In this document: one piece after another, positions 17,014-48,921 of the stretch
Numbering within the stretch: position 1 is the stretch's first letter
How the letters are laid out: each line of letters opens with the position of its first letter
Made by a program: the position numbers and the translations under genes
Notes under the pieces: generated by a model
The model's database searches: none
What the model saw: the letters and a program-made list of their open reading frames with translations, nothing else
Told to the model about the DNA's origin: nothing
NCBI GenBank assembly: GCA_027923505.1
Contig: BROI01000016.1
Coordinates: 310,001-374,000, forward strand
DNA length: 64,000 nt
From: Mayamaea pseudoterrestris
Taxonomy: Eukaryota
Direction of reading: 5' to 3'

Positions 17014-17054
17014 ACTGCCGATGAGCATGTTGTCGCGTCGGACGAATGAGGCGC

Positions 17055-19362: not shown

Positions 19363-19364
19363 GC

Positions 19365-21195
19365 CGTGAGTCTAGCCAAGGTGCTCAAAGTGATGAAATG
19401 TCAGTGGTGCCTGTCTGGTTACAATTTTCCTGTGTTGCGGCGGCAACAAACCCATGCCCCTGGAGCCGCACCCAAATCCTGGAGCTCCATTGGAAGGTAA
19501 CCACAACATGTATAAGGCATCATTAGAGGCGTCTGTATGTTTTGAGTCCAGCCAAGGTGCTCAAAGCCATGAAATGTAAGTGGTGCCTGTGTGGTTACAA
19601 TTTGCCTGGTTACAATTTGCCTGTGTTGCGGCGGCAACACACCCGTGCCCCTGGAGCTGTACCCAAATCCTGGACCTCCTTTGGAAGGTAACCACAACAT
19701 GTATAAGGCATCATTAAAGGCGTCTGTATGCCCTGAGTCCAGCCAAGGTGCTCAAAACCATGAAATGTCAGTGGTGCCTGTCTGGTTACAATTTTCCTGT
19801 GTTGCGGCGGCAACAAACCCATGCCCCTGGAGACGCACCCAAATCCTTGAGCTCCTTTAGAAGGTAACCATGACATGTAGAAGGCATCATTAAAGGCGTC
19901 TGTATGCCCTGAGTCCAGCCAAGGTGCTCAAAGTGATGAAATGTAAGTGGTGCCTGGTTACAATTTTCCTGTGTTGCTGGTGGCAACAAACCCAAGCCCC
20001 TGGAGCTGCACAAAAATCCTGGAACACCATTGAAAGGTAACCATGACATGTAGAAGGCATCATTAAAGGCGTCTGTATGCCCTGGGTCCAGCCAAGGTGC
20101 TCAAAGTGATGAAATGTCAGTGGTGCCTGTGTGGTTACAATTTTCCTGTGTTGCGGCAACAAACCCATGCCCCTGGAGCCGCACCCAAATCCTGGAGCTC
20201 CATTGGAAGGTAACCAAGACATGTATGGGGCATCATTAAAGGCGTCTGTATGCCCTGAGTCCAGCCAGAGTGCTCAAAGTGATGAAATGTCAGTGGTGCC
20301 TGTGTGGTTACAATTTTCCTGTGTTGCGGCAACAAACCCATGCCCCTGGAGCCGCACCCCATTCCTGGAGCTCCATTGGAAGGTAACCAAGACATGTATG
20401 GGGCATCATTAAAAGTGTCTGTATGCCCCTGAGTCCAGCCAGAGTGCTCAAAGTAATGAAATGTCAGTCGTGCCTGTGTGGTTACAATTTTCCTGTGTTG
20501 CGGCGGCAACAAACCCATGCCCCTGAGCCACAATCCAGCTATAAGTAACATATATGGGGCAATAAAGGTGCTACCCTCCAGCAGAGTGCTCAAAGTGATG
20601 AAATGTCAGTGGTGCCTGTCTTGTTACAATTTTCCTGTGTTGCGGCAACAAACCCATGCCCCTGGAGCCGCACCCAAATCCTGGAGCTCCATTGGAAGGT
20701 AACCAAAACATTTATGGGGCATCATTAAAGGTGTCTGTATGCCCTGAGTCCAGCCAGAGTGCTCAAAGTGATGAAATGTCAGTGGTGCCTGTTTGGTTAC
20801 AATTTTCCTGTGTTGCGGCAACAAACCCATGCCCCTGGAGCCGCACCCAAATCCTGGAGCTCCATTGGAAGGTAACCAAGACATATATGGGGCATCATTA
20901 AAGGTGTCTTCTGTATGCCCTGAAACCAGTCACTCTCGGTGAGTTCGTCTCCTCCACTGCAGCCAGGAACAGCCTCGCCCACGTTGCGCCACAGGCACCA
21001 CTGACATTTCATCACTTTGAGCACTCTGGCTGGACTCAGGGCATACAGACGCCTTTAATGATGCCCCATACATGTCTTGGTTACCTTCCAATGGAGATCC
21101 ATGATATGGGTGCGGCTCCAGGGGCATGGGTTTTTGCTGCAACACAGGAAAATTGTAACCAGACAAGCACCACTGACATTTTATCACTTTGAGCA
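19365..21195. repeat. Satellite A: ~173-176 bp monomer, about 9 copies plus one inverted copy (20991-21195)
   Basis: The gagtccagcc anchor recurs at 19368, 19544, 19735, 19911, 20084, 20257, 20431 and 20746. Confidence 0.95.
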
Positions 21196-21199
21196 GCCT

Positions 21200-24100: not shown

Positions 24101-26750
24101 TTGCTAAAATGACAGTCAGAGCCATAGTTTGATTGGTTTGGATTCATAGACTGCGCTGTTGTTCTATTTGGCCCATCTACTCCCACAGCTTTCCCAAAAC
24201 TTGAGCTTGCCAGGTTTGTTTGGTTTTGTTGGCCTCATTGATAGCTTGGCCAATGGTGGCAATGTTGGTAATTGATGGGGATGCCCAGCGGACCTGGTGG
24301 TGTGATGTGGCGACATACGGGATACTTAGCTATGTGGAAGCTAGCATGTCTACTCACAAAACTTAAAGGATTTGCATAACCGCCAAGGTTGTAGAGGTTG
24401 ATTGACCTTACCAAAAGCTTTTTGAAAGGTGGGAATGCTTCATATGACGGGGATGGCCTAAGTTCTGTGGGTGCTGCCGCTGCTGCTGCGGGACATACAA
24501 TTGCACAAAATACAGCGTATCTACTCCTGTTTTGCCAGGAACACATAAGTTGTCCAACATTGTATGTGTCATAGTACCTCATGTATACCCTGTTGAAAGG
24601 TGGCAATTTGCTAAAAAGACAATCACAGCCATACTTTGATTGGTTCGGATTCATAGACTGCGCTGTTGTTCTATTTGGCCCATCTACTCCCACAGCTTTC
24701 CCAAAACTTGAGCTTGCCAGGTTTGTTTGTCTTTGTAGGCCTCATGGATAGCTTGGCCAATGGTGGCAATGTTGGTAATTGATGGGGATGCCCAGCGGAC
24801 CTGGTGGTGTAGTGTGGTGACGTACGGGATACTTAGCTATGTGGAAGCAAGCATGTCTACTCCCAAATCTTGAAGGATTTGCATGACCGCCAAGGTTGTA
24901 GTGGATGATTGACTTTATAAAAAGCTTTTTGAAAGGTGGGAATGCTTCACATGATGGGGATGGCCAAAGTTTTGCGGGTGCTGCCGCTGCTGCTGTGTGA
25001 CATACAGTCGCACAAGATACAGTATATCTATTCCTGTTTCGCCAGGAACACATAAGTTGTCCAACATTGCATGTGTCATAGTACCTCATGTATACCCTGT
25101 TGAAAGGTGGCAATGGCTAAAATGACAGTCAGAGCCTTAGTTTGATTGGTTTGGATTCATAGACTGCGCTGTCGTTCTATTTGGCCCATCTACTCCCACA
25201 GCTTTCCCAAAACTTGAGCTTGCCAGGTTTTTTTGGTTTTGTAGGCCTCATTGATAGCTTGGCCAATGGTGGCAATGTTGGTAATTGATGGGGATGCCCA
25301 GCGGACCTGGTGGTGTGATGTGGCGACATACGGGATACTTAGCTATGTGGAAGCTAGCATGTCTACTCACAAAACTTAAAGGATTTGCATAACCGCCAAG
25401 GTTGTAGAGCTTTTTTAAAGGTGGGAATGCTTCAAATGATGGGGACGGCCTAAGTTCTGTGGGTGCTGCCGCTGCTGCTGTGGGACATGCGGTCGCACAA
25501 AATACAGCGTATCTACTCCTGTTTCGCCAGGAACACATAAGTTGTCCAACATTGTATGTGTCATAGTACCTCATGTATACCCTGTTGAAAGGTGGCAATG
25601 GCTAAAATGACAGTCAGAGCCTTAGTTTGATTGGTTTGGATTCATAGACTGCGCTGTTGTTCTATTTGGCCCATCTACTCCCACAGCTTTCCCAAAACTT
25701 GAGCTTGCCAGGTTTGTTTGGTTTTGTTGGCCTCATTGATAGCTTGGCCAATGGTGGCAATGTTGGTAATTGATGGGGATGCCCAGCGGACCTGGTGGTG
25801 TGATGTGGCGACATACGGGATACTTAGCTATGTGGAAGCTAGCATGTCTACTCACAAAACTTAAAGGATTTGCATAACCGCCAAGGTTGTAGAGGTTGAT
25901 TGACCTTACCAAAAGCTTTTTGAAAGGTGGGAATGCTTCAAATGATGGGGACGGCCTAAGTTCTGTGGGTGCTGCCGCTGCTGCTGCGGGACATACGGTC
26001 GCACAAAATACAGCATATCTACTCCTGTTTCGCCAGGAACACATAAGTTGTCCAACATTGTATGTGTCATAGTACCTCATGTATACCCTGTTGAAAGGTG
26101 GCAATGGCTAAAAAGACAATCACAGCCATAGTTTGATTGGTTCGGATTCATAGACTGCGCTGTTGTTCTATTTGGCCCATCTACTCCCACAGCTTTCCCA
26201 AAACTTGAGCTTGCCAGGTTTGTTTGTCTTTGTAGGCCTCATGGATAGCTTGGCCAATGGTGGCAATGTTGGTAATTGATGGGGATGCCCAGCGGACCTG
26301 GTGGTGTAGTGTGGTGACGAAATGTCTACTCCAAATCTTGAAGATAAGATGCTTAGGCAGATGACGGTTGTGGGAGGCTGGTGGTGCTAGAGCATGTCTA
26401 CTCCCAAATCTTGAAGGATTTGCATGACCGCCAAGGTTGTAGAGGTTGATTGACCTTACCAAAAGCTTTTTGAAAGGTGGGAATGCTTCAAATGATGGGG
26501 ATGGCCTAAGTTCTGTGGGTGCTGCCGCTGCTGCTGCGGGACATACGGTCGCACAAGATACAGTATATCTACTCCTATTTTGCCAGGAACACATAATTTG
26601 TCCAACATTGTATGTGTCATAGTACCTCATGTATACCCTGTGGAAAGGTGGCAATGGCTAAAAAGACAGAGTTGGTTTGGGTGACATACGGGATACTCAG
26701 CTAAGCGGAAGCAAGCATGTCTACTCCCAAATCTTGAAGGATTTGCATAA
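21200..26750. repeat. Satellite B: ~506 bp monomer, about 10 copies, interrupted at ~22525-23069
   Basis: The ctcat.gatagcttgg anchor recurs at 21704, 23215, 23727, 24234, 24741, 25247, 25732 and 26238. Confidence 0.95.
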
Positions 26751-27265
26751 CTTATGGAATCATACTACTACAATGCCCCGTGCCCTGATCACCCAACAAC
26801 CCAATGAGTCATGCAAAACATGTCCAGGGTGTGCCATTGACATGAGGATGGTCTGGCATGGTGCAAAACGGACTGCCTTGAGGCCTACAGCATGGAATGA
26901 TCTGCAAGATGGGTGTGGCCAACACCCCAAATTATGGAACCATACCACTACAATGCCCCATGCCCTGGCCAACCAACAACCCAAGGAGTCAGGCAAAACA
27001 TGTCCAGGGTGTGCCATTGACATGAGGATGGTCTGAAATGGTGCAAAAGAGACTGCCTGAGGCCTACACTTCTGCAAATTGGGTGGCCAACACCCAAATT
27101 ATGGAATCGTACCACTACAATGCCCCATGCCCTGATAACCCAACAACCCAATGAGTCATGCAAAACATGTCCAGGGTAGGCCATTGACAAGAGGATGTTC
27201 TGACATGGTGCAAAACGGACTGCCTGGAGGCCTACAGCATGGAATGGTCTGCAAGATGGGGGGGC
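26751..27265. repeat. Satellite C, first block (about 3 monomers)
   Basis: ttatggaa recurs at 26752, 26932 and 27099. Confidence 0.9.
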
Positions 27266-27269
27266 AAAA

Positions 27270-28805
27270 AAAGTGACAAGTTGTCACCAAATACATTACA
27301 TCCCCTGAGAAGCAAGCACCATCTTGTAGCGCATCCTGAATGATGAGCTGTTGGCACTATTCTGGTGTATTTTAGTTTACAAGGTGGGGTGGACAGTTGG
27401 GGCACGCGGGGTTTGATGTCATGGATTGGGCTGAGACTGGTGACAAGTTGTCACCAAATACATTGCCATGCCTGAGACACGAGCAAGCTACCATCTGTAG
27501 CGCAGCTGAATGAGGATGTTGGCATTTGGTTCAAGTTGTGTAGGGCGTTTTGAATGTCATGGATCGGAGTGACAAGTTGTCACCAAATACACAAGCCATG
27601 CCCGAGACACCAGCCAAGCCTACCATCTTGTAGCGCAGCCTGAATAAGGATGTTGGCAATCATCGGTAGAATTTTAGGCACCTACAGGGCTTTGCTGTAG
27701 GGGCATTTGAATACGATCGGGGGAGGAGACTGTGACACGTTGTCACCAATAAACCGAGACAACCACGAGCGCAGCTGAATATGATGGTGGCACCATTCTG
27801 GTGTGCATTTGCACCTACAGGGCTTTCTGTGGATTTGAATGTCACGGCATCGCGGGCTGAGATGAGACAAGTTGTCACCAAAGGGCCATCCCTGCGACAC
27901 CAGCCAAGCTACCATCTTGTAGCAGTCGAATAAGGATGTTGGCACCATTCTGGTGTTTTTGGGGCGTGGAGGAGTACAAGTACAATAATTGCCATGCCTG
28001 AGACACGAAATCCAACATTTAGGCGCAGCTCGAAATAAAGAAAGGGGGTTTTGTCATGGTGTTTGTCTGAGAGTGATAAGTTGTAAATACCACCTGAGAC
28101 ACCAGCCAAGCCTACCATCTTAGAAGTAAGCCTGAGCAATGATGTTGGCACCAAGTCGTACAATAATAAATACAATAAGAATACACACACATGTATAAAT
28201 ACAAATAATAGCAATAATGGGTTCTAGGTTGCAGGGCGTTGAATGTCACCACATCTGAGACTGGTGACAAGTTGTCACCAATGCCCTGAGATGCCCAGCG
28301 TCTTGTAGCGCAGCTGGAATATTGATGGTGGCAATCATTCTGGTGTTTGGGCACCTACAGTGGTCAGCTGAAGTTGAGCCACGATCTGCTGGCTGGAGAC
28401 TAAGGAGCAAGTTGTCACCAAATGCATTAAGAACTCTGAGACACCAGCCATGCCTACCATTTTGTAGCGCTGCCTGAAGAATGATGGTGGCACCATTGTG
28501 GTATATTTTGGGCACCTACAGGGCTTGCTGTAGGGACGTTTGAATGCCATGGCATCTGAGCTGACAAGTTGTCACGAATACATTGCCATCCCCTGAGATT
28601 ACCAGCAAGCTAACATTAGGCAGCCGAATATGATTCTGCGTATTTTGGGCACTACAGGGCTTGCCAGGGGCGTTTGAATGTCACGGTTCGGCGAGACTGG
28701 TGACAAGTTGCAAACATTGCCATCCCCGAGACACCAGCCAACTACCATCTTGTAGCGCAGCTCGAATAATGATGCTGGCAACATTCTTTTGGGCACCTAC
28801 AACAC
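27270..28805. repeat. Satellite D: ~130-200 bp noisy monomers with the palindrome TGGTGACAAGTTGTCACCA
   Basis: About 10 recurrences of gtgacaagttgtcacc and ctaccatcttgtagcgcagc. Confidence 0.85.
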
Positions 28806-28809
28806 TATC

Positions 28810-31800
28810 TGATGGTGTGGGCCAACACCCCAAATTATGGAATCATACTACTACAAATGCCCCATCCCCTGATCACCCAACAACCCAATGAGTCATGCAA
28901 AACATGTCCAGGGTGTGCCATTGACATGAGGATGGTCTGACATGGTACAAAACGGACTGCCTGGAGGCCTACAGCATGGAATGGTCTACAAGATAGGTGT
29001 GGCCAACACACCCAAATTATGGAATCACCTACTTTCACAATGCCCCATGCCCTGGCCCCCCAACAACCCAATGACGTCAGGCAAAAACTACATTCCAGGG
29101 TGTGCCATGTGACATGAGGGGATGGGCTGAAATGGTTACCAAACGGACTGCCTGGAGGCCTACACCATCACCAAAATGGGTGTGGCCAACACCCCAAATT
29201 TTATGGAATCCCATCACAACTTACTGACCCCCCGTCCCCTGATCACCCAACAACCCAATGAGTCATTCAAAAACATCTTCCGGGGTGTGCCATTGACACG
29301 AGGATGGTCTGACATTGTACAATACGGACTGCCTGAGAGGCCTACAGCATGGAATAAGTCCACAAAGATGGGTGTGGCCAACACCAAATTATGGAATCAC
29401 ACCACTACAAATGCCCCATGCCCTGGCCACCCAACAACCCAATGAGTCAGGCAAAACATGTCCAGGGTGTGCCATTGACATGAGGATGGGGCTGGAAATG
29501 GTGCAAAACGGACTGCCCGGAGGCCTACACCATCTGCAAAATGGGTGTGGCCAACACCCCAAATTATGGAATCATACCACTACAATGCGTCCCTGATCAC
29601 CCAACAACCAATGAGTCATGCAAAACATGTCCAGGTGTGCATTGACATGAGGATGGGTCTGGGTACAAAACGGACTGCCTGCAGGCCTACAGCATGGAAT
29701 GGTCTACAAGATGGTTGTGGCCACACCCCCAAATTTTAATCACAAGAGTTGTGCCATAACATGGTGTGGCCAACACCCCAAATTATGGAATCATACCACT
29801 ACAATGCCCCCATGCCCCGATTCAACAACAACCCAATGAGTCATGCAAAAACATGTCCAGGGTGTGCCATTGACATGAGGATGGTCTGACATGGTGCAAA
29901 ACGGACTGCCTGGAGGCCTACACCATGGTGTCTGCAAATGGGTGTGGCCAAACCAAATTATGGAATCATACAATTACAATTGATCACCCAACAACCAATG
30001 AGTCAGTGCAAACATGTCCAGGGTGCGGACAGGCGAATGCTGACAAAAGAGGTGTATGAAAAGAATAAACCCTGACCTGCCCCCGTCACCCAACAACCAA
30101 TGAGTCAGCAAAATATGTGGGTGTGATGAAGAGCTAGTGAAAAGGAGGAGGCTACACTCTCAAAAATGGGTGTAGCTAACACAAATTAAGTGGAATCATA
30201 CCATCACAATGCCCTGCCCCTGATCACCGTAACAACATGTGTCAGGGAAAACACATTATATGTCTAATGGTACAAAACGGACTGCCTGGAGGCCTACAGA
30301 TGGAATGGTTCACAGAGTTGGCCTACACTCCAAAATTATGGAATCATACCACATGCCCCATGTAACAAAATCAATGAGAAAAATGTCCAGGGTGTGCTGA
30401 GGATGGAGAAATGGTAAAAAACACCGCAAAGGCAAACCCAATGGAATCACACAAAATGTCACCAACAACCAATGAGTCATGCAAAAACATGTCAGGGTGA
30501 CATGAGGATGGTCTGACAGCACAAACGGACTGTCTGAGGAATAAAAGTGTGTGGCCAACACCAATGGAATCAACCAAAACTCCCGATCACCCAACAACCC
30601 AAATGTGATGAATAGGGATGGTCTGACATTAAAGATAAGTAGGGTGTGGCAAACCCCAAATATGGAATCATACCACTACAATGCCCCATGCCCTGCCACC
30701 CAACAAACCCAATGAGTCAGTGTGGGGGACATGAGGATGGGCTGAATTGGTGCAAAACGGACTGCCTGGAGGACTTTGCAAAGTGTAAAATTATGGAATC
30801 ATACCAATTATAATAATGCCCCTGCCTCTGATCACTCCAACAACCCAATGAGTCAAAGTAAAACATGTCCAGGGTGTGCCATTGACATGAGGATGGTCTG
30901 ACATGGTATAAAACGGATCGCCTGGAGGCCTACAGCATGGAATGGTCTACAAGATGGGTGTGTGGCCATTATGGAATCATACAAAATGCCATGCTGGCCA
31001 CCAAACAAAACTCCAATGAGTCAGGCAAAAATGTCCAGGGTGTGCCATTGACATGAGGATGGGCTGAATGGTGAAACGGACTGCCTGAGGCCTACACTAT
31101 CTGCAATGTGGCCAACACTCCCAAATTATGGAATTCACCACTACTAATGCTCGCTGCTCTCCGCCTAACAACCCAATGAGTCAAGGCAACAGTGTCGTGT
31201 GCTGGCTAGGATGGTCTGATTACAAAAGGAATGCTGGAGGCCTACAGCATGGAATGAACACAAGATGGGTGTGGCTGGCCCAAATTCATGGAATCATACC
31301 ACTACAATGCTCCCATGCCCTGGCCACAAAAAACGAATCAGACAAAACATGTCCAGGGTGCCACTGGACAGAGGATGGGAGTGCGCCTACACACCATCGT
31401 GCAAAATGGGTGTGGCCAATGGACCTCAAATTATGGAATTATACCACTACAATGCCCATCCCTGATCACCCAACAACCCAATGAATAAAAACAGATGTCC
31501 AGGATGTGCCATTGACATGAGTGATGGTCTCACATGGCAAAAACGGACTGCCTGGAGGCCTACAGCATGGAATGGTCTACAAAAAGGTTGGCCAACACCA
31601 AATTATGGAATCTGGCAATACTTGCAATGCCCCATGCCCTAACCCAACAACCAATGAGTCAGGCAAAATGTCCAGGGTGTGCCACTGACAGTGAGTGATG
31701 GGCCGATGGTGCAAAACGGACTGCCCGGGAGGCTCACACCATCTGCAAATGGGTTGTTTGTCACCCCAAATAGTGGAATCATACCACTACAATACTCGTT

Positions 31801-32841
31801 CTGATCACCCAACAACCCAATGAGTCATGCAACATGTTCAGGGGTGTAATATTGACATGAGGATGGTCTGACATGGCACAAAACAGACTGCCTAACAGCC
31901 TACAGCATGGAATGGTACAGAGGGTGTGGCTAACACCCTAAATTATGGATTCCATACCACTACAATGCCTCATGCCCTGGCTACACAACAACCCAATGAA
32001 GGAAACATGTCCAGGGTGGTGTGGCATTGACATGAGGATGGGCTGAAATGGTGCAAACGGACTGCTGGGCCTACACCATTCGCAAAACGGTGGTGTACAA
32101 CACCCCAATTATGGAATCATACCACTACAATGCCTCGCTTCCTGATCACCCAACAACCCAATGAGTCATGCAAAACATGTCCAGGAGTGCTACTGACACG
32201 AGGATGGTTCGGACATGTACAATGGACTGCCTGGAGGCCTACAGCATGGAATGGTCTACAAGATGGGTGTGGCCAACACCCCAAATTAGAATCACTGGCA
32301 ACAAAACCAATGAGTCAGGAAAATGTCCGTGTGCCATTACATAGGATGGGCTGAAATGGTGCAAAACGGACTGCCTGGAGGCCTACACTATCTGCAAAAT
32401 GGGTGTGGCCAACACCCCAAATTATGGAATATACCACTACAATGCTCCCTTCCCTGATCACCCAACAACCCAATGAGTCATGCAAAACATGTCCAGGGTG
32501 TGCCATTGACATGAGGATGGTCTGGACATGGTACAAAAACGGATCGCCTGGAGGCCTACAGCATGGAATGGAGCCCCACAAGATGGGTGGGCCAACACCC
32601 CAAATTAAATCATACCACACATGTTCTGGCTACAATTAACAACTCAATGAGTCAGGCCAAATGTCCAGGGTGTGCCATTGACAGGAGGGATGGGCTGAAA
32701 TGGTGCAAAACGACACTGGGAGGCCTACACCATCTGCAAAATGGGTAGCTACCCTCAAATTATGAATTCATACCACTACAATGATCATCAAAAAGTGCAA
32801 AAATGATGTCCGTGTGCCATTACATAGGATGGTCTGACATG
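28810..32841. repeat. Satellite C main block: alternating ~180/~168 bp monomers, over 20 copies
   Basis: Recurring aattatggaatcataccactacaatgcccc...caatgagtca...gtccagggtgtgccattgacatgaggatgg, with two alternating variants. Confidence 0.92.
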
Positions 32842-35817
32842 TTAGAAGCCGCTTCAACCGAAAGTACCCGAAGATGCATTCCTGCAGTTCGCCTGGAACG
32901 AGTCCTGCATTGCTGGCTTTGACGAGCCACATTTCTCACATACCAAGGAAGCAGATGACGCTGGCTTCCATTGCAGAGAACAAGGGTGACATCCTCACGT
33001 ACTGTTCCAACCGATCGACTGGAATGGTTGTCGTCCGATCCAACGTTCGTCCCTTCTCCGAAGGGCGAATCCTACGCGCGAAGCTGAAAGCGCCCTGAAC
33101 CCAAGTCCGAACGACCACTGTTCGCGGAACCTGTTCGACGCGCGCCCGCGCGTGAACGCAGTCCAAGTCGAAACTGTCGACGAGTTTGACGATGAGTATG
33201 ACCTAGCCGGTCCGTGTTTGAACACGACCTTACACCGACTCCCAGCGCCTGGATTCTGGGGGAACTGTGGATGAAGACGAGATTCACGCTGGAAAGCGCT
33301 GCCGAAGTTAGTCGCCCGATCCCGACGACCGCGCCGCTTTTACCTGGCTGAACTGATGTGGACGACTGTCCTGACGAGGGCACGCCCACGCGACGCTGGC
33401 AAGGCTATCGGCAACCGAACGATCGCGATGAAGCCAACCACAAGATCACGTCTGATTGAGTCTCGGCGACGGCCACGTCGTATGAGCTTATTACCTACAA
33501 ATCTAACTAGCTGACCTGTGCCAGGCAAGACTTTACGACTGGGGGGACGTATGACAACGACGACCAGTACTACAAGTTTATTTCATTGACGGACATGAAG
33601 GTCCACTGGACACAAGCCGACGCCATTTATCGCGCTCATCCTACAACTTGCTCTTCATCCAATGGGCAAATGGCGAGAAGACCTGGAGCCACTCATTGAT
33701 TATCAAGTCCGAATTCTGTGACCGCTTGGCCAGTATGGCAAGCGCAAGGGATGCTGGACAAGGATGGATGGAAGCGCTTAGCGCATGGCAGGACGCACTC
33801 AAATTGTTTAACCGCATGTGCAAGGCTGCAAAGAAGAACCGTCCAAGAAGCGTTTCAAGTTTTGATGCTCGTTCCTAATACCTGGAAGGAAGCGAACCGC
33901 CTCACGCTGCTAATGGAAACACACTGTGGCTGACGCCGTCAAGACCGAGATGGAGCAGCTACACGAAAGTACCATTAATTTTCAAACGGCAAGGGCATTG
34001 GTGCCTTCATGGAAAGTGACTGGAAGCGATCAACGCGCATCTTGTTTTCGACTGCAAGAACTATCTACGACGTAGCGCCCGACTCGTCGGGGACATCTGA
34101 CCGCTTCTCCGCCAAGGACTCCGCCACTCGTTGTATCTACGGCTACGCGAACCATAGCACTGTTAGCTGAACTGAATGACCTCAAGTTTTGGGCTGTCGA
34201 CGGGTAAACTTCTTACTGAGGCCAAGCATTAAGGAAGATAGTCTACATTGTTGCCGGGTCCTATTGAAGGCCATACCTTGGTCATCTACAAGGCACTATA
34301 CGATTGGGCGCACTTTCTGGCGCATAAGGAGCACTTTGCCGACACACTCCGCGACATTGATTCTACCTAAGCCACGCGGATCCTGACGCCTGGATGAAGG
34401 ACTGTGGCACTCACTAATGAGTATCGGGCCGGCGTGTTCGCCGACGATCTGGCTATGGCCATGAAAGATCCACAGCCTTCAATGACCTCCTCAAAGAGAA
34501 GTACAAGTACAAGTTGAAGGGCGCGGCGACATCATATCACCTTTGAGCCGACTTCTATCGTGATCCCGATGGAACTCTCTGTATGAGCGCGCAAAGACCT
34601 ACGTCGGTCGCATGCTCAAGAACTACGAGACCATGTTTACGAGAGGGCCACGCAGGCTAGTCACTGACGACGGGGACCACCCCGAACTTGACCTACTGAG
34701 AGCTGGAGCCTGTGGCATTCAACAGTACCAGCCCTTATCGGTGACCTCCAGTGGGCAGTGGACCCGGCGTCGACTTGATTCATTGTGCTGTAATGACACT
34801 TAGCTTCCGCTGCGCCCAAGGCCAAGGATTACCTGACTGAGCTAAGCGAAATCGGCAACTATTTCCAGCTGAGTACCCTGATGCGGCGATTCGTTTCCGG
34901 ACGAAGATCGTCGATCACGGGAACCTACCAAGTATGATTGTCGCAATCGGCCCACGGCAACTCAAGCGGCAGCCTGCGGAACATGCCGATCCCGAAGGGC
35001 AAGCCTGTGCAACTAACTACCTTTATGGACGCGGAAACCTGTACCATGATTAGTACTACTGACGTTCCGCAATGGGAGTCCTGCATTTCCTGAACCAGAC
35101 GCCTGTCTAATGGTTCTGCAAGGCCAGAATACTGTCGAGACTGCAACATATGGATTCGAGTCTGCTGCCGCCAAGACCGCGATGGAACAGATTATGGATT
35201 CGATACCCCACGAATGCTGGGAGTTCCTTTGAGTGGACCAGCCTGGATGTTCGGGCGACAAACGAAAGTGTCAAGAAGTCAACAACCATCCCGCACTCAC
35301 CTCTAAGCGACACAATGCGCTGCCTACCATCGATCTGCGAGGCCATTGCGCAATGTTCTGTACTTTGAACATCTTCGGGTAAGCAGAACGTCACGATTTA
35401 CCAAGTTCTTGCCGCATGCCACGCCCGAACCCTGACTATTCCGATTTTTTGTGATAATGGCAAACGACAAGGTCACAAGCAGATCAAGGGATGACACAAA
35501 TTATTGAGTTGCTGACCAGCGCCTTATGACAAGACGGTTAGCTACCTGTGTTTTTGTATGCATTTAATCCTGTGCAGGGGTTGAGTCACACTTAGACCGA
35601 ATCCTCACATACATGAGAGTGAATGCTGACGATCGAGGCGTGAACCTCGACCAGAACCCAGTGAGAACGGGAGAAGGAAGAGAGCAGAGTAGTGAGTAAC
35701 ATCCACTATTCTAGCAAATTGAGTTTTGTTTGTTTGCTTTACGCTGACCTAAGAGGTTGATCGCTCCGAGTCCATTGTAGTCGCTTGAATAAAGGTTCGC
35801 CTGATATTATCGTGTCA
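32842..35817 (+). mobile_element. Ty1/Copia (diatom CoDi-like) retrotransposon, 3' half: integrase C-terminus, RT, RNase H, 3' LTR
   Basis: Frameshifted remnants IAENKGDILTY, HLVFDCK, LVIYKALY, DPDAWMK, DFYRDPDGTL, DHPELD, LHFLNQTP and QNTVETATYG, in Copia INT-RT-RH order. Confidence 0.9.
35492..35817 (+). repeat. 3' LTR (~326 bp)
   Basis: TGACAC...GTGTCA termini, preceded by purine-rich agatcaaggga, internal AATAAA; reverse-complement homolog of 41545-41872. Confidence 0.9.
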
Positions 35818-36089
35818 TTTGACAGACATGTATTGAACGAACAAAACAGCAAATGGTCCATTTACAACGCATTAAAGGAGCAACAATTGAAGGACAAGCT
35901 ACCTTTCCCAAGAATGAACGACCGTTTTCTGCTCACACTAGGTGACTTACGGGATTTGGTGCAAGGGTCACTTGAGTTGTTGCACTGAAAAGGAGAAATA
36001 GGTCATGTGGTAGGTGACACACGGCTTATTGCACACTTATTGTGTACCAATACAACATTATTGCATTGAAAGTGCTTTTTCCGCATGCT

Positions 36090-39000
36090 CCTGAGCTTGG
36101 CACTTGGGCCATTTATTGGCACACTTGATAGCAAGTGCTTTGGGTGAGTGCTGGGAGACCACACTGGGAGACACAGAGGGTGACACACGCTTTGGTGCTG
36201 CACTGGGAAGAAGACTGGGTCCTGCACTGAGGACTCCACTTGGCTTGGCACTTGGGTCCTTGACGGCACACTTGATAGCAAGCTGGGTGGAGTGCTGGGA
36301 GACACACTGGGAGACATGGAGGTGACAAGCTTGGTGCTGCACTGGGAAGAAGACTCGGGTGCCCTGGGTGCCTCACACTGGCTCGGCGCTTGGGTCACTT
36401 GACGGCACACTTATGGCACACGTTTGGGCTGCTTGGGTGAGTGCTTTGGAAGACACACTGGAGCCACGCGGAGGGTGACAAGCTTGGTGCTGCACTGGGA
36501 AGAAGACTGGTCCTGCACTAGGTGACCTCCTCTGGCTTGCGTGCTTGGGTCACTTGACGGCACACTTGTGGCAAACTGCTGGCTGGAGTGAGTGCTAGGA
36601 GACACTGGGAGCCACGGAGGAATTGGTGCATACACTGGGAAACAGGCTAGGTCCTGGGCTTAGGGACTCAACCGGCTTGGCGTTAGGTCACTTGACGGCA
36701 CACTTGATAGCAAGCTGCTTTGGGTGAGTGCTGGAGACACACTGGAGCCACGGAGGTGTGACAAGCTTGGTGCTGCACTGGGAAGAAGACTGGGTCCTGC
36801 GCTAGGTGCCTCACTTGGCTCGGTGCTTGGGTCATTTGATGACACACTATGGCAAGCTGCTTGGGTGAGTGCTGGGAGACACACTGGGAGCCACGGAGGG
36901 GGTGACAAGCATTTGTGCTGCACTGGGAAGAAGACTGGTTCCTGCACTTAGGGTGACTCGCTTGGCTCGGCGCTTGGGTCACTTGACGGCACACTTGTGG
37001 CACACCTGCTTGGGTGAGTGCTGGGAGAGCACACTGGGAGCCACGGAGGGTTTGGTGCTGCACTGGGAGGTCTGTGCGCTAGGTGACTCACTTAGCTTGG
37101 CGCTTGGGTCACTTGACAACACACTTGATAGCAAGCTGCTTGGGGGTGAGTGCTGGAGACACACTGGGGAGCCACGGAGGGTGACAAGCTTGGTGCTGCA
37201 CTGGGAAGAAGACTGGGTCCGTGCGCTAGGTGACTCACTTGGCTTGGGGTCGCTTGACGGCACATATGGCACACTTGATGTGGCTGCTTGGGTGAATGCT
37301 GGGAGACACACTGGGAGCCACGGAGGGTGCAACGTTTTTGCTGCACTGGGAAGAAGACTGGGTCCTACGCGCTAATGACTCAGGGTGGCTTGGCGCTAGG
37401 GGTCACTAGCGGACGGCACATTTGATGGCAAGCTGCTTGGGTGAGTGCTGGGAGAACACTGGGAGACACGGAGGGGTGACAAGCTTGGTGCTGCACTGGG
37501 AAGAAGAACTGGGTCCTGCGCTAGGTGACTCACTTGGCTGGCGCTTGGGTCATGACGGGCACACTATGGCAAACTGCTTGGGGTGAGTGCTGGAGACACT
37601 CGGGAGCCACGGAGGGTGACAGGCTTGGTGCTGCACTGGGAAGAAGACTGGGTCCTGCACCAGGTGACTCACTTGGCTTGGCTTTTTGCTGGGTCACTTG
37701 ACGGCACCTTGTTGGCACACTGCTTGGTGAAGTGCTAGAGACGCACTGGGGGGGCCCGGGTGACAACGTCCTGGAAGAAGACTGGGTCTCGGGACTCGCC
37801 CAGCCCTTGGTCGACGGCACACTTATGGCACTGCTTGGGTGAGTGCTGGAAACTGGGCCGCGAGGGTGACAAGCTTGAGGTGCTGCACTGGGAAGAAGAC
37901 TGGGTCCTGCGCTGGGTGGCTCATAGCGCGCTTGGGTTTGACGGCACACTTGTGTGGCTGCTGCTTGGTGATGTGTGCACGGGGTGTAAGCTGGTCTGCA
38001 CTCAGGGAAGAAGAACTGGAGTCCCTGCGCTAGGTGACTCACTTCGGCTTGGCGCTGGGTCCTTGAAGCACATGATGGCAAGCTGCTTGGGTGGTGCTGG
38101 GAGACACACTGGGAGCCACGGAGGGAGTGACAAGCGGTGCTGCACTGGGGAAGACTGGGTCCTGCGCCTGGTGACTCCTCGGCTTGGCGCGCGGTTCACT
38201 TGATGGCAAGCTGCTTGGAGTGGAGTGCTGGGAGACACACTGGGAGCCCGGAGGTGACAAGCTTGGTGCTGCACTGGGAAGAAGGCTGGGTCCTGCGCTA
38301 GGTGACTCACTTGGCTTGGCCTGGGGTCACTTGGCGACACTTGATGGCAAACTGCTTGGGTGAGTGCTGGGAGACACACTGAGCTGGGGTGTGTCAGCTT
38401 TTGGTGCTGCACTGGGGAAGACTGGGTCCTGCGCTGTGACTCCTGGCGGCGCGCCGTCCCGTTGCTCTTGGGTGAGTGCTGGGAGACACACTGGGAGCCC
38501 ACGGAGGGAGTGCAAGCTTGGTGCTGCCTGGGAGGAAGAAGACTGGGTCCTCGCTAGGTGACTCACTTGGCTTGCGCTTGGTCACTGACGGCACACTTGA
38601 TGGCAAGCGGCGGTGAGTGCTGGGAGACACACTGGGGCCACGGAGGGATGACAAAAGCTTTGGTGCTGCCTGGGAGGAAGAGGGCTGGGTCGCTGGGTGA
38701 CTCACTTGGCTCGGCGCTTGCGGTCCTTGACCTTTGGCCAGCAGCTGGGTGAGTGCTGGGAGCCCTGGGGAGCCACGGAGGGTGACAAGCGGTGGTGCCT
38801 GGGAAGAAGACTGGGTCCTCCGCGGGTGGTCACTTGGGCGGCCCGGGCACAGAGGTCTGCGCTGCGATGGCAGCTGCACTTGGGTGAGTGCTGGGAGACA
38901 CACTGGGAAGCCACGGAGGGTCGACAAACGGTGCTGCACTGGGAAGAAAGACTGGGTCCTGCGCTGGACTCGCTGCCGTGCGCACACTTGATGGCAAGCT

Positions 39001-39722
39001 CTTGGGTGGTGCTGGGAGCCACACTGGGAGCCACGGGTGACAAGCCGGTGCTTACCTGGGAAGAAGGCTGGGGTCCCTGCGCTAGGTGACTCTGAGCAGC
39101 TTGGGTCTTCTTGCGGCCTGTGGCAACTGCTTGGGTGGGTGCTGGGAGACACACGGCCCGGGGGGTGACAAGCTTGGTGCTGCACCGGGGAGAAAAGAAA
39201 GCTGGGACCTGCTGCTAGTTGACTCCGCGAGTTGGCGCCGGCTGCCTGTGGCAAGCTGCTTGGGTGGTGCTGGGAGACACCCTGTCTCCTGGGGCGGGGG
39301 TCGCTTGGTGCTGCCTGGGGAGAAGACTGGGTCCTGCGCGGTGACTCACTTCTTGGCGCTGGGTCTTGGCGCGTGGCTAGCTGCTTGGGTGAGTCTGGAG
39401 AACCGGAGCCCCGGGGGGTGACAAGCTTGGTGCTGCACTGGGAAAGACTGGGTCCTGCGCTAGGTGACTCACTTGGCTTGGTGCTTGGGTCACTTGACGG
39501 CACACTTGTTGTGGCTAGCTTGGGTGAGTCTTTGGGAACACACTGGAGCCCGCACGGAGGGTGACAAGCGGTGCTGCACTGGGAAGAAGACAGGTCCTTC
39601 GCGGGACTCCTTGGAGAACCGCTTGGGTATGTAGGCGGCGCATTCTGTGGGAAGCTGCTTGGGTGGTGCTGGGGGACACACTGGGGCCACGGAGGGTGAC
39701 AAGCTTGGTGCTGCACTGGGAA
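36090..39722 (-). pseudogene. Pro-Ser tetrapeptide-coding tandem array (~144 bp unit), noisy and frameshifted
   Basis: Minus frames give SSVPSSDPSTKPSESPSAGPSLLPSAAPSLSPSVAPSVSPSTHP fragments throughout. Confidence 0.8.
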
Positions 39723-41533
39723 GAACGAACCACATGGGGGATGCGACTTAGTCCCGAATGGGGTGTGTCGATAAAAAGCGCAGTATTTCTTAATGGTCTT
39801 GCTTGACTCGTTCAGAGTGGCGTGTAGAGTAAAATTGCGACGCTTGGTAGTCAGGTTCTGTGGCATTGTGTCTTTGGCTCGGCGCGTCGTTCAACGATGC
39901 GTCGTCTGCCCCGTTTTGTTGTTCCGTGTGTGGCGTGCTCTTGGTGCGGAGTCGGCGGTTTCTTTCCATTCGTGGCGGTAAGCTCAAGTTCTTCTTCGTT
40001 CCTTCTTGTCTCGGATCCCAGGGTGTCCGCGGGAAAATGACCGTCGGATACTTTCCCTCTCTGCGTCCGGCCTCGGCACCGTCGCGGTCGCCAAGTGGTC
40101 TTGCCACAGCTGGTGACAATGGCTTGTGTTCATTCTGGAGGCCGGAGCAGCGTCTCGTCCGATCAGATGGCCGAGCACCGAAGCTGCGACGGTGCATGAG
40201 TGGTTCGCCCCCTAAGCATACTGGTTTCCGGTCCGTGGTCTCGAAGCGGCGCCGTTCCGGGTGCGTTCTCCGTTCTGCATCTAGCTTCCTGCGAGTCCCC
40301 GTTCCGCCGTCATCTCTTGGCGGGTTCGTTGCCTGCGCTCGTTCACGTGTAGGCCCGTCCCGCGGGCGGCGCGTCGCTTCCGCAACTCTGGGGTGTTGTC
40401 GCGGCGAGTGCGGAGCGCGCCGCGTGTCTTCGCGAAAGATCTAATCGTATTCCATTTTTTTGTATCGGCGTCGGGACAGCGATCGTTCTGATACAGGATG
40501 CCAGCCCGGCAGCCGCGACTGCTGGTTATTCGCGCGGTTCCGTTGTTGGCGCTCTTGTGGTGGCTGGTCTTGGTCGCGAGTTCGCGATAGACGCCTTGAG
40601 CGTCAGACGTTGTCGCATTTCATCAGGAGCGACTGGTGTCCAGGGACTTGAGAATTGCGAAACGGTGTGTCATGAAGACTTGCTGACTCCCGAATTCTAT
40701 TCTCTTCTTCCGTGACTGGAACGCACTTGCTGTCGAAAGCACGTTAGAACAGCCATGGAGCTGGCGATTGCTTTAGACGCGCTCCAACTCAACCATGCGT
40801 GGGGATGTTGGAACGTTTTGTAGTCCTTATAGTCTCGTTTCGTCTTGAGGTTCGAGAAACGACCCTTGGCATCTTCTTCCTTTTCGGCCTTCTCAGCCTT
40901 GATGGTCTCATTTTCGGAAGCTGTTTGGCAAGTAGCGCCGGCTTGCTTCTTCTTGGACTCGAAAGTACACTAGTATCCTTCTTCACGCTCCCGCGGATTT
41001 CTTGTTCCGCGAGAATCGTTATCGGGCAAGACTTGGGCTCGGGTCTTGATCGAGGACAAGGTCACAGTGGCTGGTGCTAGTCGTTTCGTATCTGCTGGTT
41101 GTTCGTCGCCGGCCGGGCGCATCGTCAGGATCGCGCGCCTTCAGGTTGTCACGCCAGCTGGATGGCGGCTCTGTCGACCCAGTAGGGGGCTTCAAGTTGC
41201 TCCTTGGTCAATCTCAACATCTGGGTAGTGGTGGTTACATTCCAAAACAAGAACGCTTCTTGGATGTCTCGTCCGAAAACGTTCGTGCAGAGAAGCTGCA
41301 AAGCTTCCGCAGTAATCGCAACCATGATAGTGAATACCTCGCTTTCCGCAAGTCCTTTCTTACACAACAACCGCTCTCAATGCAGTCGAGCCTTATACGA
41401 TCCTGTTCTACGCGCTCGTGTCAAGTATTCGGATTGACGACGCCGCAAGGAATCTGCTCTTTCTCTCTCAATTTCTCGATTCTTTCACTCTTTCTCTTTC
41501 GCACAGCTCTCTCAGGTCAAGACAAGCTAGCAA

Positions 41534-41544
41534 GACTGTTAATC
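41534..41544 (-). other. Candidate primer-binding site complementary to the tRNA-Asn(GUU) anticodon arm
   Basis: GATTAACAGTC directly follows the LTR end; its complement GACTGTTAATC fits tRNA-Asn positions 30-40. Confidence 0.7.
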
Positions 41545-41872
41545 TGACACGATAATATCAGACGAACCTTTATTCCAGCGACTACAATGGACTCGGAGCG
41601 ATCAACCTCTTCGTCCAGCGTAAAGCAACAAACAAACTCAATTGCTAGAATAGTGCATGTTACTCGCTACTCTACTCGTGCGCTTCCTTCTCGTTCTCAC
41701 TGGGTTCACGGTCGAGGTTCACGCCTCGATCGTCAGCGATTTCACTCATGTATGTGAGGATTCGGTCACAAGTGTGACTCAACCCTGCACAGGATTAAAT
41801 GCATACAAAACACAGGTAGCTAACCGTCTTGTCATAAGACGCAGGTCAACTCAACTCAATAATATTGTGTCA
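41545..41872 (-). repeat. 5' LTR (328 bp)
   Basis: TGACAC/GTGTCA inverted termini; homologous along its length to 35492-35817. Confidence 0.92.
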
Positions 41873-44180
41873 CCTCACTTGGCTTGGTGCTTGGGTCATT
41901 TGATGGCACACTATGGCACACTGCTTGGCTGCTTGGGTGAGTGCTTGGAGACACACTTGGAGCCACGGAGGGTGACAAGCTTTGTGCTGCACTGGGAAGA
42001 AGACTGGCTCCTGCACTAGGTGACTCGCTTGGCTTGGTGCTTGGGTCATTTGATGGCACACTGTGGCACACCGCTTGGGCGAGTGCTAGGAGATGCACTG
42101 GGAGCCACGGAGGTTGGTGCAGCACTGGGAAATAGGCAGGGTCATGGGCTAGGGGACTCACTCGGCTTGGCGCTTGGGTCACTTGACAGCACACTTGATA
42201 GCAAGCTGCTTGGGTGAGTGCTGGGAGACACACTGGGAGACACGGAGGGTGACAAGCTTGGTGCTGCACTGGGAAGAAGACTGGGCCCTGTGCGCTAGGT
42301 GCCTCACTTGGCTTGGTGCTTGGGTCATTTGATGGCACACTATGGCACACTGCTTGGCTGCTTGGGTGAGTGCTTGGAGACACACTTGGAGCCACGGAGG
42401 GTGACAAGCTTTGTGCTGCACTGGGAAGAAGACTGGCTCCTGCACTAGGTGACTCGCTTGGCTTGGTGCTTGGGTCATTTGATGGCACACTGTGGCACAC
42501 CGCTTGGGCGAGTGCTAGGAGATGCACTGGGAGCCATGGAGGTTGGTGCAGCACTGGGAAATAGGCAGGGTCATGGGCTAGGGGACTCACTCGGCTTGGC
42601 GCTTGGGTCACTTGACGGCACACTTGATAGCAAGCTGCTTGGGTGAGTGCTGGGAGACACACTGGGAGACACGGAGGGTGACAAGCTTGGTGCTGCACTG
42701 GGAAGAAGACTGGGCCCTGTGCGCTAGGTGCCTCACTTGGCTTGGTGCTTGGGTCATTTGATGGCACACTATGGCACACTGCTTGGCTGCTTGGGTGAGT
42801 GCTTGGAGAACACTTGGAGCCACGGAGGGTGACAAGCTTTGTGCTGCACTGGGAAGAAGACTGGCTCCTGCACTAGGTGACTCGCTTGGCTTGGTGCTTG
42901 GGTCATTTGATGGCACACTGTGGCACACCGCTTGGGCGAGTGCTAGGAGATGCACTGGGAGCCACGGAGGTTGGTGCAGCACTGGGAAATAGGCAGGGTC
43001 ATGGGCTAGGGGACTCACTCGGCTTGGCGCTTGGGTCACTTGACGGCACACTTGATAGCAAGCTGCTTGGGTGAGTGCTGGGAGACACACTGGGAGACAC
43101 GGAGGGTGACAAGCTTGGTGCTGCACTGGGAAGAAGACTGGGCCCTGTGCGCTAGGTGCCTCACTTGGCTTGGTGCTTGGGTCATTTGATGGCACACTAT
43201 GGCACACTGCTTGGCTGCTTGGGTGAGTGCTTGGAGACACACTTGGAGCCACGGAGGGTGACAAGCTTTGTGCTGCACTGGGAAGAAGACTGGCTCCTGC
43301 ACTAGGTGACTCGCTTGGCTTGGTGCTTGGGTCATTTGATGGCACACTGTGGCACACCGCTTGGGCGAGTGCTAGGAGATGCACTGGGAGCCACGGAGGT
43401 TGGTGCAGCACTGGGAAATAGGCAGGGTCATGGGCTAGGGGACTCACTCGGCTTGGCGCTTGGGTCACTTGACGGCACACTTGATAGCAAGCTGCTTGGG
43501 TGAGTGCTGGAAGACACACTTGGAGCCACGGAAAGTGACAAGCTCTGTGCTGAACTGGGTAGAAGACTGGCTCCTGCACTAGGTGACTCACTTGGCTTGG
43601 CACTTGGGTCACTTGACAGCACACTTGATTGCAAGCTGCTTGGGGGGAGTGCTGGGAGACACACTTGGAGCCACAGAGGGTGACAAGCTTAGTGCTGCAC
43701 TGGAAAGAAGACTGGGTCCTGCACTAGGTGATTCACTTGGCTTGGTGCTTGGGTCACTTAATGGCAGGTCACTTGGTGGCACACCAGATGGCAAGCTGCA
43801 GGTGAGAGCTTGGAGACAAACTTGGAGCCACAGAGGGTGACAAGCTTGGTGCTGCACTGGGAAAGAGACTGGGTCCTGCACTAGGTGATGCACTGGGACT
43901 GGTGCTTGGATCACTTGGTGGCACACTCAATGGCAAGCTGCTGGGGTGAGTGCTGGGAGACAGACTGGGAGCCACAGAGGGGGCAAGCTTGGTGCTCCAT
44001 TGGGAAGGAGAAATAGGCCCTGCGGTAGGTGATGCACTGGCACCTGGATTACCTGATGGGTCACCTGATGGCACACCTGGTGTTCAGTTGGTGATGGGTA
44101 ACATGATGGCACACTTGGTGTTCACTGTCAGTTGAGTGCAATAGATAGACCGAGAGCCAGAGGATGACAAGCTTGGTGAT
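41873..44180 (-). pseudogene. Pro-Ser repeat array: four 429-bp higher-order repeats plus a diverged flank
   Basis: Units start at 41873, 42302, 42731 and 43159, each made of three ~143-bp subunits; 43590-44180 is more diverged PSxx-coding sequence. Confidence 0.88.
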
Positions 44181-46456: not shown

Positions 46457-48921
46457 ATGAGGACGTCTCTTGCCTTGTTGTTGGCTCTTCCAGTGGTACG
46501 TTGCGCTGAATTTAGCAAGGAAGATGCCTGGGTCGGGCGAAAGAAAAATGGAGGCTGTTCGTCAAGAAGCAAATCGGATGTTCAACGAAGCAGTTTCGAT
46601 ACGATGCCCCTAGTGGTGGCATCTTCATTGCCAAGTCAAGATATCGCTACCATCATATGGAAAACATGCATTGTCATCTCGGATCAATTGGATGGACCGC
46701 CTCGTCGTAGCGATTCCGCCATGGTCGTTCGATCCTTGCTTTTTCGAAATTCAACATACGGGTTACTTACGTACCGTTTCTATTTTTCTTTCAGGTGGCG
46801 ACGGCATTTACCTCCCGCGCCTTCACTCCACGGTCCGTTAATAATGTCCTCAATGCTCAAGACTCTAATATTCCTGGTCCACCTTACCAAGGCCCCGCTG
46901 TAAAACCTATATTGGACTCGATTTCCTCGCCAGCTAACATGAAAACTCTCGACATGCGGCAGCTAAAACAATTGACTCACGAACTACGATGGGAAGTTCT
47001 GGAATCAGTTTCCAAAACGGGAGGTCACTTGAGTTCATCGCTGGGAGTCATGGAGCTGACTGTTGCGCTACATTATGTGTTTGACATGCCAGAGGATGAC
47101 ATTATATGGGACGTTTCGCACCAGTGCTACCCGCACAAGATTTTGACGGGCCGACGAGGTGGCATGGCAAAGTTGCGCCAGCTGGGTGGTATTTCCGGAT
47201 TCTGCAAGCGAAAGGAGAGCCCGTATGACTCGTTTGGAGCAGGACATTCGTCAACGAGTATCAGCGCCGCCCAAGGAATGAGCATTGCCAAAAGCATGTT
47301 GGGCAAGCGAAAGAACAATTGCATTGCTGTCATTGGTGATGGCGCAATTACTGGAGGAATGGCGTATGAAGCCATGAACTCGGCTGGATATTTGAACTCA
47401 CGAATGATTGTCATCCTCAATGACAATGGCCAAGTTAGTCTACCAACTGGAACACCTAGTGCTGGTGGCACGGTTCCTGCGTCGCAATTATCGACGTACA
47501 CATCAAACTTGCTCGTTTCCAAGCCATTCCAAGACTTTCGTGACTTTGCCAAAAGCTTTAACAAGCTACTACCAGAGAGCTTACAGGATGTCAACAAACG
47601 TATTGACGAATATGCTCGTGGTGTTGTCACGGGTGGAACGCTTTTCGAAGAACTCGGGTTTTATTACGTTGGGCCCGTGGATGGCCACGACCTCGAAAAC
47701 ATGATTCCAATTTTGGAAAAGCTTCGCGATAGCCCCAACAATAAGCCTGTTCTGCTGCATCTGAAGACGACCAAAGGCTATGGATATCCACCAGCTCTGG
47801 AAGCTAGCGACCGTATGCACGGAGTTGGAAAGTTTGACCTTGGAACCGGAAAACAAATTAAACCTTCAAAGCCATCGTCCCCAAGTTTGACATCAATTTT
47901 TGCAAACGCCTTGATTGATGCGGCTACAGAGGATCGAACCGTTGTTGGTATTACTGCGGCCATGCCAGGCGGAACAGGAATGGACATTTTCGGTCGACGC
48001 TTTCCCAAGCGAACCTTTGATGTCGGCATTGCTGAGCAGCATGCTGTTACGATGGGTGCGGGTATGGCTTGTGAAGGGCTCAAGCCCTTTGTTTGCATTT
48101 ATTCCACCTTTATGCAACGCGGCTACGACCAAGTCATGCACGATGTTGCTGTTCAAAACCTTCCCGTTCGCATGGTACTCGACCGAGCCGGTTTGGTTGG
48201 AAATGACGGTCCAACCCATCACGGATGCTACGACTTGAGCTATTTAGGGTGCATTCCAAACCTTACGATAATGGCTCCAAGTGACGAAATAGAGCTCAAA
48301 AACATGGTCATGACGCAGGCAGCCTACAACGACGGACCGACCGTCATGCGGTACCCACGCGGGACAGGCTATGGCGCAGAGAAACTGCAAAGCTTATTTG
48401 GCTACAAGCTGTTGAATGGCGAGATCCCAGCCAAGGGCGAGGTTATCCCTATCGGTAAAGGACGCGTTGTACGAAGACCGGGTGGCGCTCGAGGAAAGTC
48501 ACGCAAGGACCGTGTAGCTATTCTTTCGCTTGGTACCCGACTGCATGAATCGCTCGTGGCGGCAAATGAAGTTGAGGAAATTGACGACTCACTTGGCGTG
48601 ACTGTTGCCGATGCCCGATTTATGAAGCCGCTTGATGTTGATTTGGTAAGAGAGCTTGCCGACGATCATTCGGTCATCATAACGATTGAAGAAGGTAGCA
48701 TTGGTGGATTTGGAGATCATGTCTTACATTTCCTTGCACTTGATGGGCTTCTTGACGACGGCAACCTTAAATTCCGCCCAATGGTGATCCCAGACACTTA
48801 TTTTGAAACTGCTACACAATACGAACAATATGAACAAGCTGGTCTTAACTCGGAACATATCCGAGGGACCATTCTTCGGCTGACGAAACGAATTCATGTG
48901 CCGACACTGCAAGATGTTTAA
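46457..48921 (+). CDS. dxs: 1-deoxy-D-xylulose-5-phosphate synthase, plastid-targeted; exons 46457-46495 and 46795-48921
   Basis: GGHLSSSLG, WDVSHQCYPHK, GDGA..NDN, GPVDGHD, DVGIAEQHA and DRAGLVGNDGPTHHG motifs. Splicing gives the leader MRTSLALLLALPVVATAF. Confidence 0.97.
46496..46794 (+). other. Phase-0 GT-AG intron (299 bp) within the dxs signal peptide
   Basis: GTACGT donor, tacttac branch-like site, pyrimidine tract and ttcAG acceptor; removal restores signal peptide plus AF. Confidence 0.85.

Follow-up and report, generated by a model that had tools for sequence, protein, structure and literature searches.

A candidate half-tRNA-Asn primer binding site beside the 5' long terminal repeat of a truncated, probably Copia-type element in diatom DNA

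A 64,000-nucleotide stretch of diatom DNA (positions 310,001 to 374,000 of contig BROI01000016.1, here called the window) carries a truncated long terminal repeat (LTR) retrotransposon, the 5' LTR of which is adjoined on the minus strand by the 15-mer GATTAACAGTCTTGC (41530..41544). On the evidence of its sequence, this 15-mer is probably the minus-strand primer site of a diatom Copia-type family that would be primed from the anticodon arm of a cytoplasmic tRNA-Asn(GUU) and not from a tRNA 3' end. From the same evidence we infer a host tRNA-Asn carrying this arm, its cleavage and the act of priming itself. The class of mechanism is well known, and half-tRNA priming from tRNAs other than initiator tRNA-Met has already been published, possibly including tRNA-Asn, so that the novelty attached to this site in an initial annotation was overstated.

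Read on the minus strand, the LTR 3' end (GATATTATCGTGTCA) is followed by GATTAACAGTCTTGC (41544 to 41530) and then by TAGCTTGTC. The LTR ends in CGTGTCA at 41545, leaving a gap of 0 nt, and TGG is absent from the first 20 nt beyond the LTR end. The strand assignment amends the initial annotation, but the latter's statement that the site directly adjoins the 5' LTR in the absence of TGG is borne out by both the sequence and the edge of the LTR alignment. This edge was set by a BLAST alignment to a second LTR copy in the window, which begins exactly at 41545, and also by one diverged contig from a public sequencing run (X9), in which the match ends at 41544. A position 0-2 nt after the 5' LTR, without complementarity to a tRNA 3' end, is the trait of the half-tRNA class, and GATTAACAGTCTTGC displays it. 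The 15-mer occurs only once in the window, even with up to two mismatches allowed; its chance expectation in the window is 0.13, with at least one match in 13 of 100 shuffles.

The complement of the candidate site, GCAAGA-CTGTTAA-TC, corresponds to tRNA positions 26-40, comprising G26, the stem CAAGA (27-31), the loop CTGTTAA (32-38) with the anticodon GTT, and TC at 39-40. Within it, GA-CTGTTAA-TC has the pyrimidine 32, U33 and purine 37 (A37) expected of a generic anticodon arm, and positions 30-40 and 31-39 are Watson-Crick paired, in agreement with the initial description of a GTT anticodon loop ending at tRNA position 40. These generic constraints fit only 522 of the 127,980 11-mers of the window (0.41%).

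Natural counterparts of the arm were sought in a collection of metagenome contigs (241 million records), using the predicted full arm GCAAGACTGTTAATCTTG, which consists of the site complement and the three bases implied by stem pairing. Of the 74 exact matches obtained, 62 fell within tRNA-Asn(GTT) genes called by ARAGORN and representing 44 distinct tRNA sequences; the other 12 comprised three uncalled tRNA-like sequences and nine apparently random places. The very same arm is therefore borne by natural asparagine tRNAs. In place, in register and in its pairing (15/15 with positions 26-40 of the 62 metagenome tRNA-Asn genes), the half-tRNA-Asn priming proposed in the initial annotation holds up, with the arm of the host's own tRNA-Asn being predicted. 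Many carriers of the arm encode CCA and sit in tRNA clusters, and look bacterial or phage-like. Other carriers without CCA, with a T-run just downstream (L001/L002/L037, L021/L057/L051, L055/L072, L049 and L013/L019/L033/L052/L059), look eukaryotic. A near-identical tRNA-Asn is shared by 11 contigs of up to 27.7 kb (L005, L008, L009, L027, L046, L053, L058, L063, L064, L070 and L071); its T-loop is unusual, reading GATCGAAAC as against GTTCGA... in most others, and is followed by a T-run. The sole tRNA gene of the window is a tRNA-Gly(GCC) (1441-1511, plus strand).

In the proposed mechanism, tRNA-Asn would be cut after position 40, within the anticodon stem's 3' strand, and the 15 terminal nt (G26 to C40) of the resulting 5' fragment would anneal to the site. 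This primer would then be extended by reverse transcriptase through a very short U5 and R to yield strong-stop DNA, in a manner analogous to that of Drosophila copia and yeast Ty5. In copia and Ty5 the register is such that the complement stops after two bases of the anticodon stem's 3' strand. The likeness extends to the Copia type of the element, the site placed right after the 5' LTR, its complementarity to an anticodon arm and the lack of TGG. The differences are that copia and Ty5 use initiator tRNA-Met and not tRNA-Asn(GUU), that the present host is a diatom and that the diatom element is known from its sequence alone.

Assignment of the site to a 5' LTR depends on the sense of that LTR, which follows from another copy of this family, lying on the plus strand. 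Here, a pol remnant of ~2.6 kb (32860..35461), with stops and with frameshifts about every 30-60 codons, is followed by a polypurine tract (PPT), AAGCAGATCAAGGGA (35477..35491; 12/15 purines), and directly after the tract by a 3' LTR of 326 nt (35492..35817). As remnant, tract and LTR run in this order on the plus strand, the sense of the LTR is established. The right LTR (41545..41872, minus strand; 328 nt, termini TGACAC...CGTGTCA) is opposite in sense, which puts the 15-mer beyond the 3' end of this LTR, at the location of the primer site of a 5' LTR. By BLAST, the left LTR (35817-35492) is 89.55% identical to the right one over 335 columns. Both begin with TGACACA and end with CGTGTCA, giving the TG...CA ends with short inverted repeats that are found in Copia elements, and both contain AATAAA ~25 nt before the LTR 3' end (41574 to 41569 in the right LTR), in keeping with the sense assigned to them. 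The two LTRs are mutually inverted and so do not bound one element; each copy is truncated and has kept a single LTR.

The family is likely, though not proven, to be of the Copia type, as judged from sequence comparisons of the second copy. With Pfam, RVT_2 was absent from 32 plus-strand open reading frame (ORF) fragments of 32800-35500, which gave only chance-level matches such as MIT and DUF4746. A word-index protein search with a 92-aa fragment (33600-33875) returned 31 candidates, none of which scored. In addition, five matches at E ≤0.001 were obtained with HMMER for a 107-aa fragment (33555-33875) against 1.84 billion representatives and were judged spurious; by Pfam, two were TPR-repeat proteins, one a haemolysin-type repeat protein and one a PQQ_2 protein, and one carried Imm31 only, with a retroelement domain in none of them. 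The fragment at 34564-34800 was more informative, showing 60% identity (E 6.4e-11) to P0126, a 313-aa protein that is named by NCBI as a hypothetical protein of Mayamaea pseudoterrestris. In a tblastn comparison with the window, each of the three plus frames gave a match to P0126 (E 5.9e-31, 2.9e-25 and 5.6e-23), together covering 34591-35461, and this spread over three frames marks the region as a frameshifted homolog.

No Pfam family was found on P0126. Its Atlas look-alikes, which are language-model leads only, include a cluster from Bacillariophyta that bears the name 'Reverse transcriptase Ty1/copia-type domain-containing protein (Fragment)' (0.97) and another in which 17% of the members carry RVT_2 (0.95); the top look-alike (0.98) is an unnamed cluster labelled viral. 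A search of viral contigs for loci related to P0126 gave one locus, L075, which we regard as a false match, as its ORFs carry T4-like portal and terminase domains and the contig looks phage-like. By eye, on the basis of Copia motifs, we take P0126 to be the part of a Copia-type polyprotein that holds the tether and the RNase H end; the motifs of the plus-strand remnant presumably also resemble those of diatom Copia-type polyproteins, a visual comparison and not a test. The P0126 homology ends at 35461, at a distance of 16 nt from the PPT and 31 nt from the LTR, and nothing lies between its end and the PPT. With P0126 read in this way, the arrangement would fit the Copia order of protease, integrase, reverse transcriptase and RNase H (PR-INT-RT-RH), in which RNase H is last. 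The label of Copia element in the initial annotation is thus likely to be correct through the second, decayed copy, whereas the copy bearing the site is a 2.1-kb 5' piece (39726-41872) without a recognisable domain.

This right copy is a non-satellite insert of 2147 bp within one array of a ~144-bp satellite, with the LTR flush at one end. The left part of the satellite occupies 36095..39725; the right part (41873..44011), which contains a 429-bp higher-order repeat in five copies with 93% matches, begins flush at the outer LTR end (41873). Behind the LTR, non-satellite DNA extends for 1.8 kb, up to the return of the satellite at 39725. On the minus strand, this DNA would comprise the leader and a decayed internal remnant (39726..41529) with ORFs that lack a family match. 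Only chance-level Pfam matches were obtained for 18 minus-strand ORF fragments of 39850-41545, and retroelement families were absent from the Pfam results for the long ORFs around the site and for individual fragments. A gag-like ORF (41152-41376, minus strand) gave Atlas look-alikes of 0.86 at best, from unrelated families, and was uninformative. The simplest reading is that the right copy comprises a 5' LTR, a leader and an internal remnant of an element that entered the satellite, its 3' part having been lost afterwards. What is left of this copy is truncated and dead. The ~144-bp satellite itself may be a heterochromatic or centromere-near array.

Conservation of the site beyond the window was assessed with contigs from four public runs (X1, X2, X3 and X9), which were aligned to 39900-41872, with differences at ≥10% listed. 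Single contigs of X1 and X3 span 41160-41872 with four other letters and one gap, and a 402-nt contig of X2 (41162-41563) bridges the boundary between LTR and site. For X9, 2076 pieces were placed, and the bin holding the site had a summed depth of 9339 compared with 16,324-28,457 over the LTR, summed contig depth being no measure of copy number. For this reason, no use was made of the ratio of leader to LTR depth in X9 (~0.2-0.5), which resembles that of a 5' LTR to all LTRs. Differences at ≥10% are absent from 41493-41593, which includes the site, in all four runs. Leader variants at intermediate frequency occur at 41361 (1909/4324, 28 X9 contigs), 41421 and 41492, and LTR variants at 41594 and 41687, together with an insertion at 41626. 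Contigs of other runs also contain pieces of the insert (39979-40174, 40569-41018 and 41160-41529). Moreover, the internal pieces 39979-40174, 40569-40828 and 40851-41018 are found on other contigs with long, unlike flanks, a pattern as of dispersed repeats. Stretches without contig cover, such as 40230-40427 and 41022-41087, were left uninterpreted. The LTR, site and leader recur as a unit without variants in the site, which would be in line with the conservation that the initial annotation had named as a check; the copies may or may not be independent, and a stretch of 15 nt is too short for significance. X9 belongs to a set of four very small libraries from one organism (X9-X12; 15-40 million letters), in which the summed word depth over the LTR reaches 16,000-28,000. 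A large share of these libraries thus comes from this LTR family, and their type may be targeted, RNA or small-RNA.

Several observations weigh against a half-tRNA-Asn primer site. The window offers only one 5' LTR junction, the second copy being without a 5' end, and protein domains were not recognised downstream of GATTAACAGTCTTGC by Pfam or among Atlas look-alikes; the name Copia comes from the second, decayed copy and a language-model look-alike. Pairing stops at 15 nt, position 25 being mismatched in all 62 tRNAs. The arm is uncommon, with just 74 exact matches from organisms of unknown origin (bacteria, phages and eukaryote-like carriers), and blastn of these 74 tRNA loci against the window found the motif and one chance match of 35 nt, giving a diatom link for none. 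As tRNA stems are very diverse, the existence of such an arm in nature is also weak as a discriminating argument. With regard to conservation, the contigs of X1-X3 extend 890, 890 and 371 nt past the outer LTR end, and may therefore represent the same locus in related strains and not independent copies. X9 is extremely deep, and its variant contigs could in part reflect sequencing errors. Furthermore, with ~5 variant sites per 700 nt, an invariant 15-mer is not significant by itself.

Pending the sequence of the host tRNA, the main rival is a chance resemblance, in which the 15-mer would be plain leader and the true primer an unknown RNA, or the true site would lie further downstream or have mutated in a dead copy. 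This is clearly less probable than priming from tRNA-Asn, but deserves to be taken seriously. A generic arm pattern at 0.41% of positions is not vanishingly rare, the arm match is known from metagenome tRNAs and not from those of the host, the arm is rare in that collection, and the invariance of 15 nt lacks significance at the observed density of variants. Nevertheless, the register is exact, from the 0-nt gap to the end at position 40, as in known half-tRNA elements. The entire 15 nt, and not only the generic pattern, match real tRNA-Asn genes, and neither of the alternatives sought, TGG and a self-complement, was found. Another tRNA with a near-identical arm is an unlikely primer by comparison. 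The FunCo1 element, with its site ATTAAGAGTCT one base off ATTAACAGTCT (PMC5445492), points to tRNA-Lys(CUU) with one anticodon mismatch tolerated, but the site as it stands specifies a perfect GTT anticodon, asparagine is the identity of all 62 tRNA matches, and a mid-duplex mismatch within 15 nt would fit worse than perfect pairing.

The remaining explanations deny that the 15-mer is a tRNA-primed site at all. Were the right LTR a solo or 3' LTR, the 15-mer would be flanking host DNA, a slightly less likely case again. It draws on the absence of a second LTR and of a recognisable ORF from the right copy, and on the chance that the X1-X3 contigs might be an orthologous locus. This is difficult to reconcile with the 1.8 kb of non-satellite DNA behind the LTR inside one satellite array, with pieces of that DNA on other contigs with unlike flanks, and with leader variants at intermediate frequency in many X9 contigs, such as the 28 at 41361. 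Self-priming of the Tf1 type, in which the transcript's initial bases pair back onto the site, is known from some Copia lineages, for example TAR (PMC6317226). It is very improbable here, as the first 25 nt past the LTR have a complement of at most 7 nt within the LTR (LTR position 225), and a complement of at least ~10 nt between the transcript 5' end and the site, as in Tf1, was not found. Equally remote is a plus-strand remnant of a tRNA-Asn gene that was hit by the inserting element. In some organisms tRNA genes are the insertion targets of LTR elements, but in 35300-42000 Rfam gave no match at E ≤1 and ARAGORN called no tRNA gene. In addition, similarity to the 62 tRNAs stops at G26 with nothing resembling a D arm or acceptor stem upstream, and other runs likewise contain this sequence joined to the LTR.

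Half-molecule tRNA priming has been described for copia and Ty5 (as cited in PMC10886601), and is presented as a lineage trait confined to Ty1/copia in PMC6317226. Beyond initiator tRNA-Met, half-tRNA priming is in print for Ile, Lys, Arg, Tyr and Asp, with one mention of Asn-GTT in a text on rust fungi. In filamentous ascomycetes, the FunCo1 site ATTAAGAGTCT is the complement of an interior stretch of tRNA-Lys, according to PMC5445492. It is identical to the window site at 10 of 11 positions, the difference lying opposite the first anticodon base; FunCo1 differs in its tRNA (Lys CTT, compared with Asn GTT here) and its fungal host, and is likened to the diatom element by primer site and not by polyprotein. 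The Copia families of rust fungi have non-autonomous Helenus partners, and the extracts of PMC10886601 name their primer as tRNA-Asp twice and as tRNA-Asn-GTT once, for what is seemingly the same class. As GTT is the Asn anticodon, the mentions of Asp may be slips. These elements belong to fungi and not to a diatom, and the inconsistent wording of the extracts makes their report of a half-tRNA-Asn uncertain.

Green plants provide further instances of half-molecule priming, with other tRNAs: Bianca with 1/2tRNA-Ile, and Osser, Bryco and Gymco-II with 1/2tRNA-Met. In the same extracts of PMC6317226, Asn appears only among tRNA 3'-end sites, in 2% of elements. LTR families of Candida albicans such as gamma have a site homologous to a stretch inside tRNA-Arg(UCU) or tRNA-iMet (PMC4139406), resembling the present element in the use of an internal tRNA site and differing in the tRNAs and in the yeast host. 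Closest in host group are the CoDi Copia elements of diatoms (PMC2806351), the P0126 look-alike cluster named Ty1/copia-type also being from Bacillariophyta. In the searchable text of Maumus 2009 (PMC2806351), the term tRNA had no matches and 'PBS' occurred as a buffer only, the primer site never being discussed there. No statement on primer sites in diatoms was found in the literature searched, and supplementary primer-site tables may hold more. A Cyclotella paper mentions LTRdigest filtering only, and a paper on LTR structure does not include diatom sites. Papers retrieved for tRNA-Asn together with primer binding sites do not describe diatom elements, as judged partly from their titles and the starts of abstracts, and a text search for the motif and for its RNA and reverse forms returned no retroelement papers by title.

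It is conceivable, but doubtful, that half-tRNA-Asn(GUU) priming is the rule for a whole diatom Copia lineage. The unclassified 'D loop/anticodon' tRNA fragments of ~19 nt reported from Phaeodactylum small-RNA libraries (PMC4247016) would then include processed primers of such elements, and this primer type would be the first to be described for diatom retrotransposons. If the host tRNA-Asn does match, asparagine tRNA and diatoms would join the half-tRNA-primed Copia elements. An LTR end next to an anticodon-arm complement would also be a simple marker for annotating diatom LTR elements; pipelines of the LTRdigest type seek tRNA 3' ends and would discard such elements. The known mechanism is unchanged by the finding.

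Elsewhere in the window, an intron-less gene for 1-deoxy-D-xylulose-5-phosphate synthase (DXS) occupies 46711-48921 on the plus strand as an open frame of 736 aa. The protein is 98% identical to one of Mayamaea pseudoterrestris and 86% identical to one of Nitzschia inconspicua, identities that place the window in a raphid pennate diatom. Further tandem arrays fill ~13 kb (19603-32800), in which ORFs of ≥180 aa are absent. They consist of 173-bp units at 19603-20923, of which inverted copies lie at 20990-21133, units of ~485-507 bp at 21067-26765, and units of ~167-182 bp at 26711-32582 that extend as far as the plus-strand Copia remnant, on its truncated 5' side. A 12-bp periodic repeat of at least 48 copies (10772-11500) lies within overlapping long ORFs on both strands (10241-11571), and probably represents either low-complexity sequence or repetitive coding sequence.

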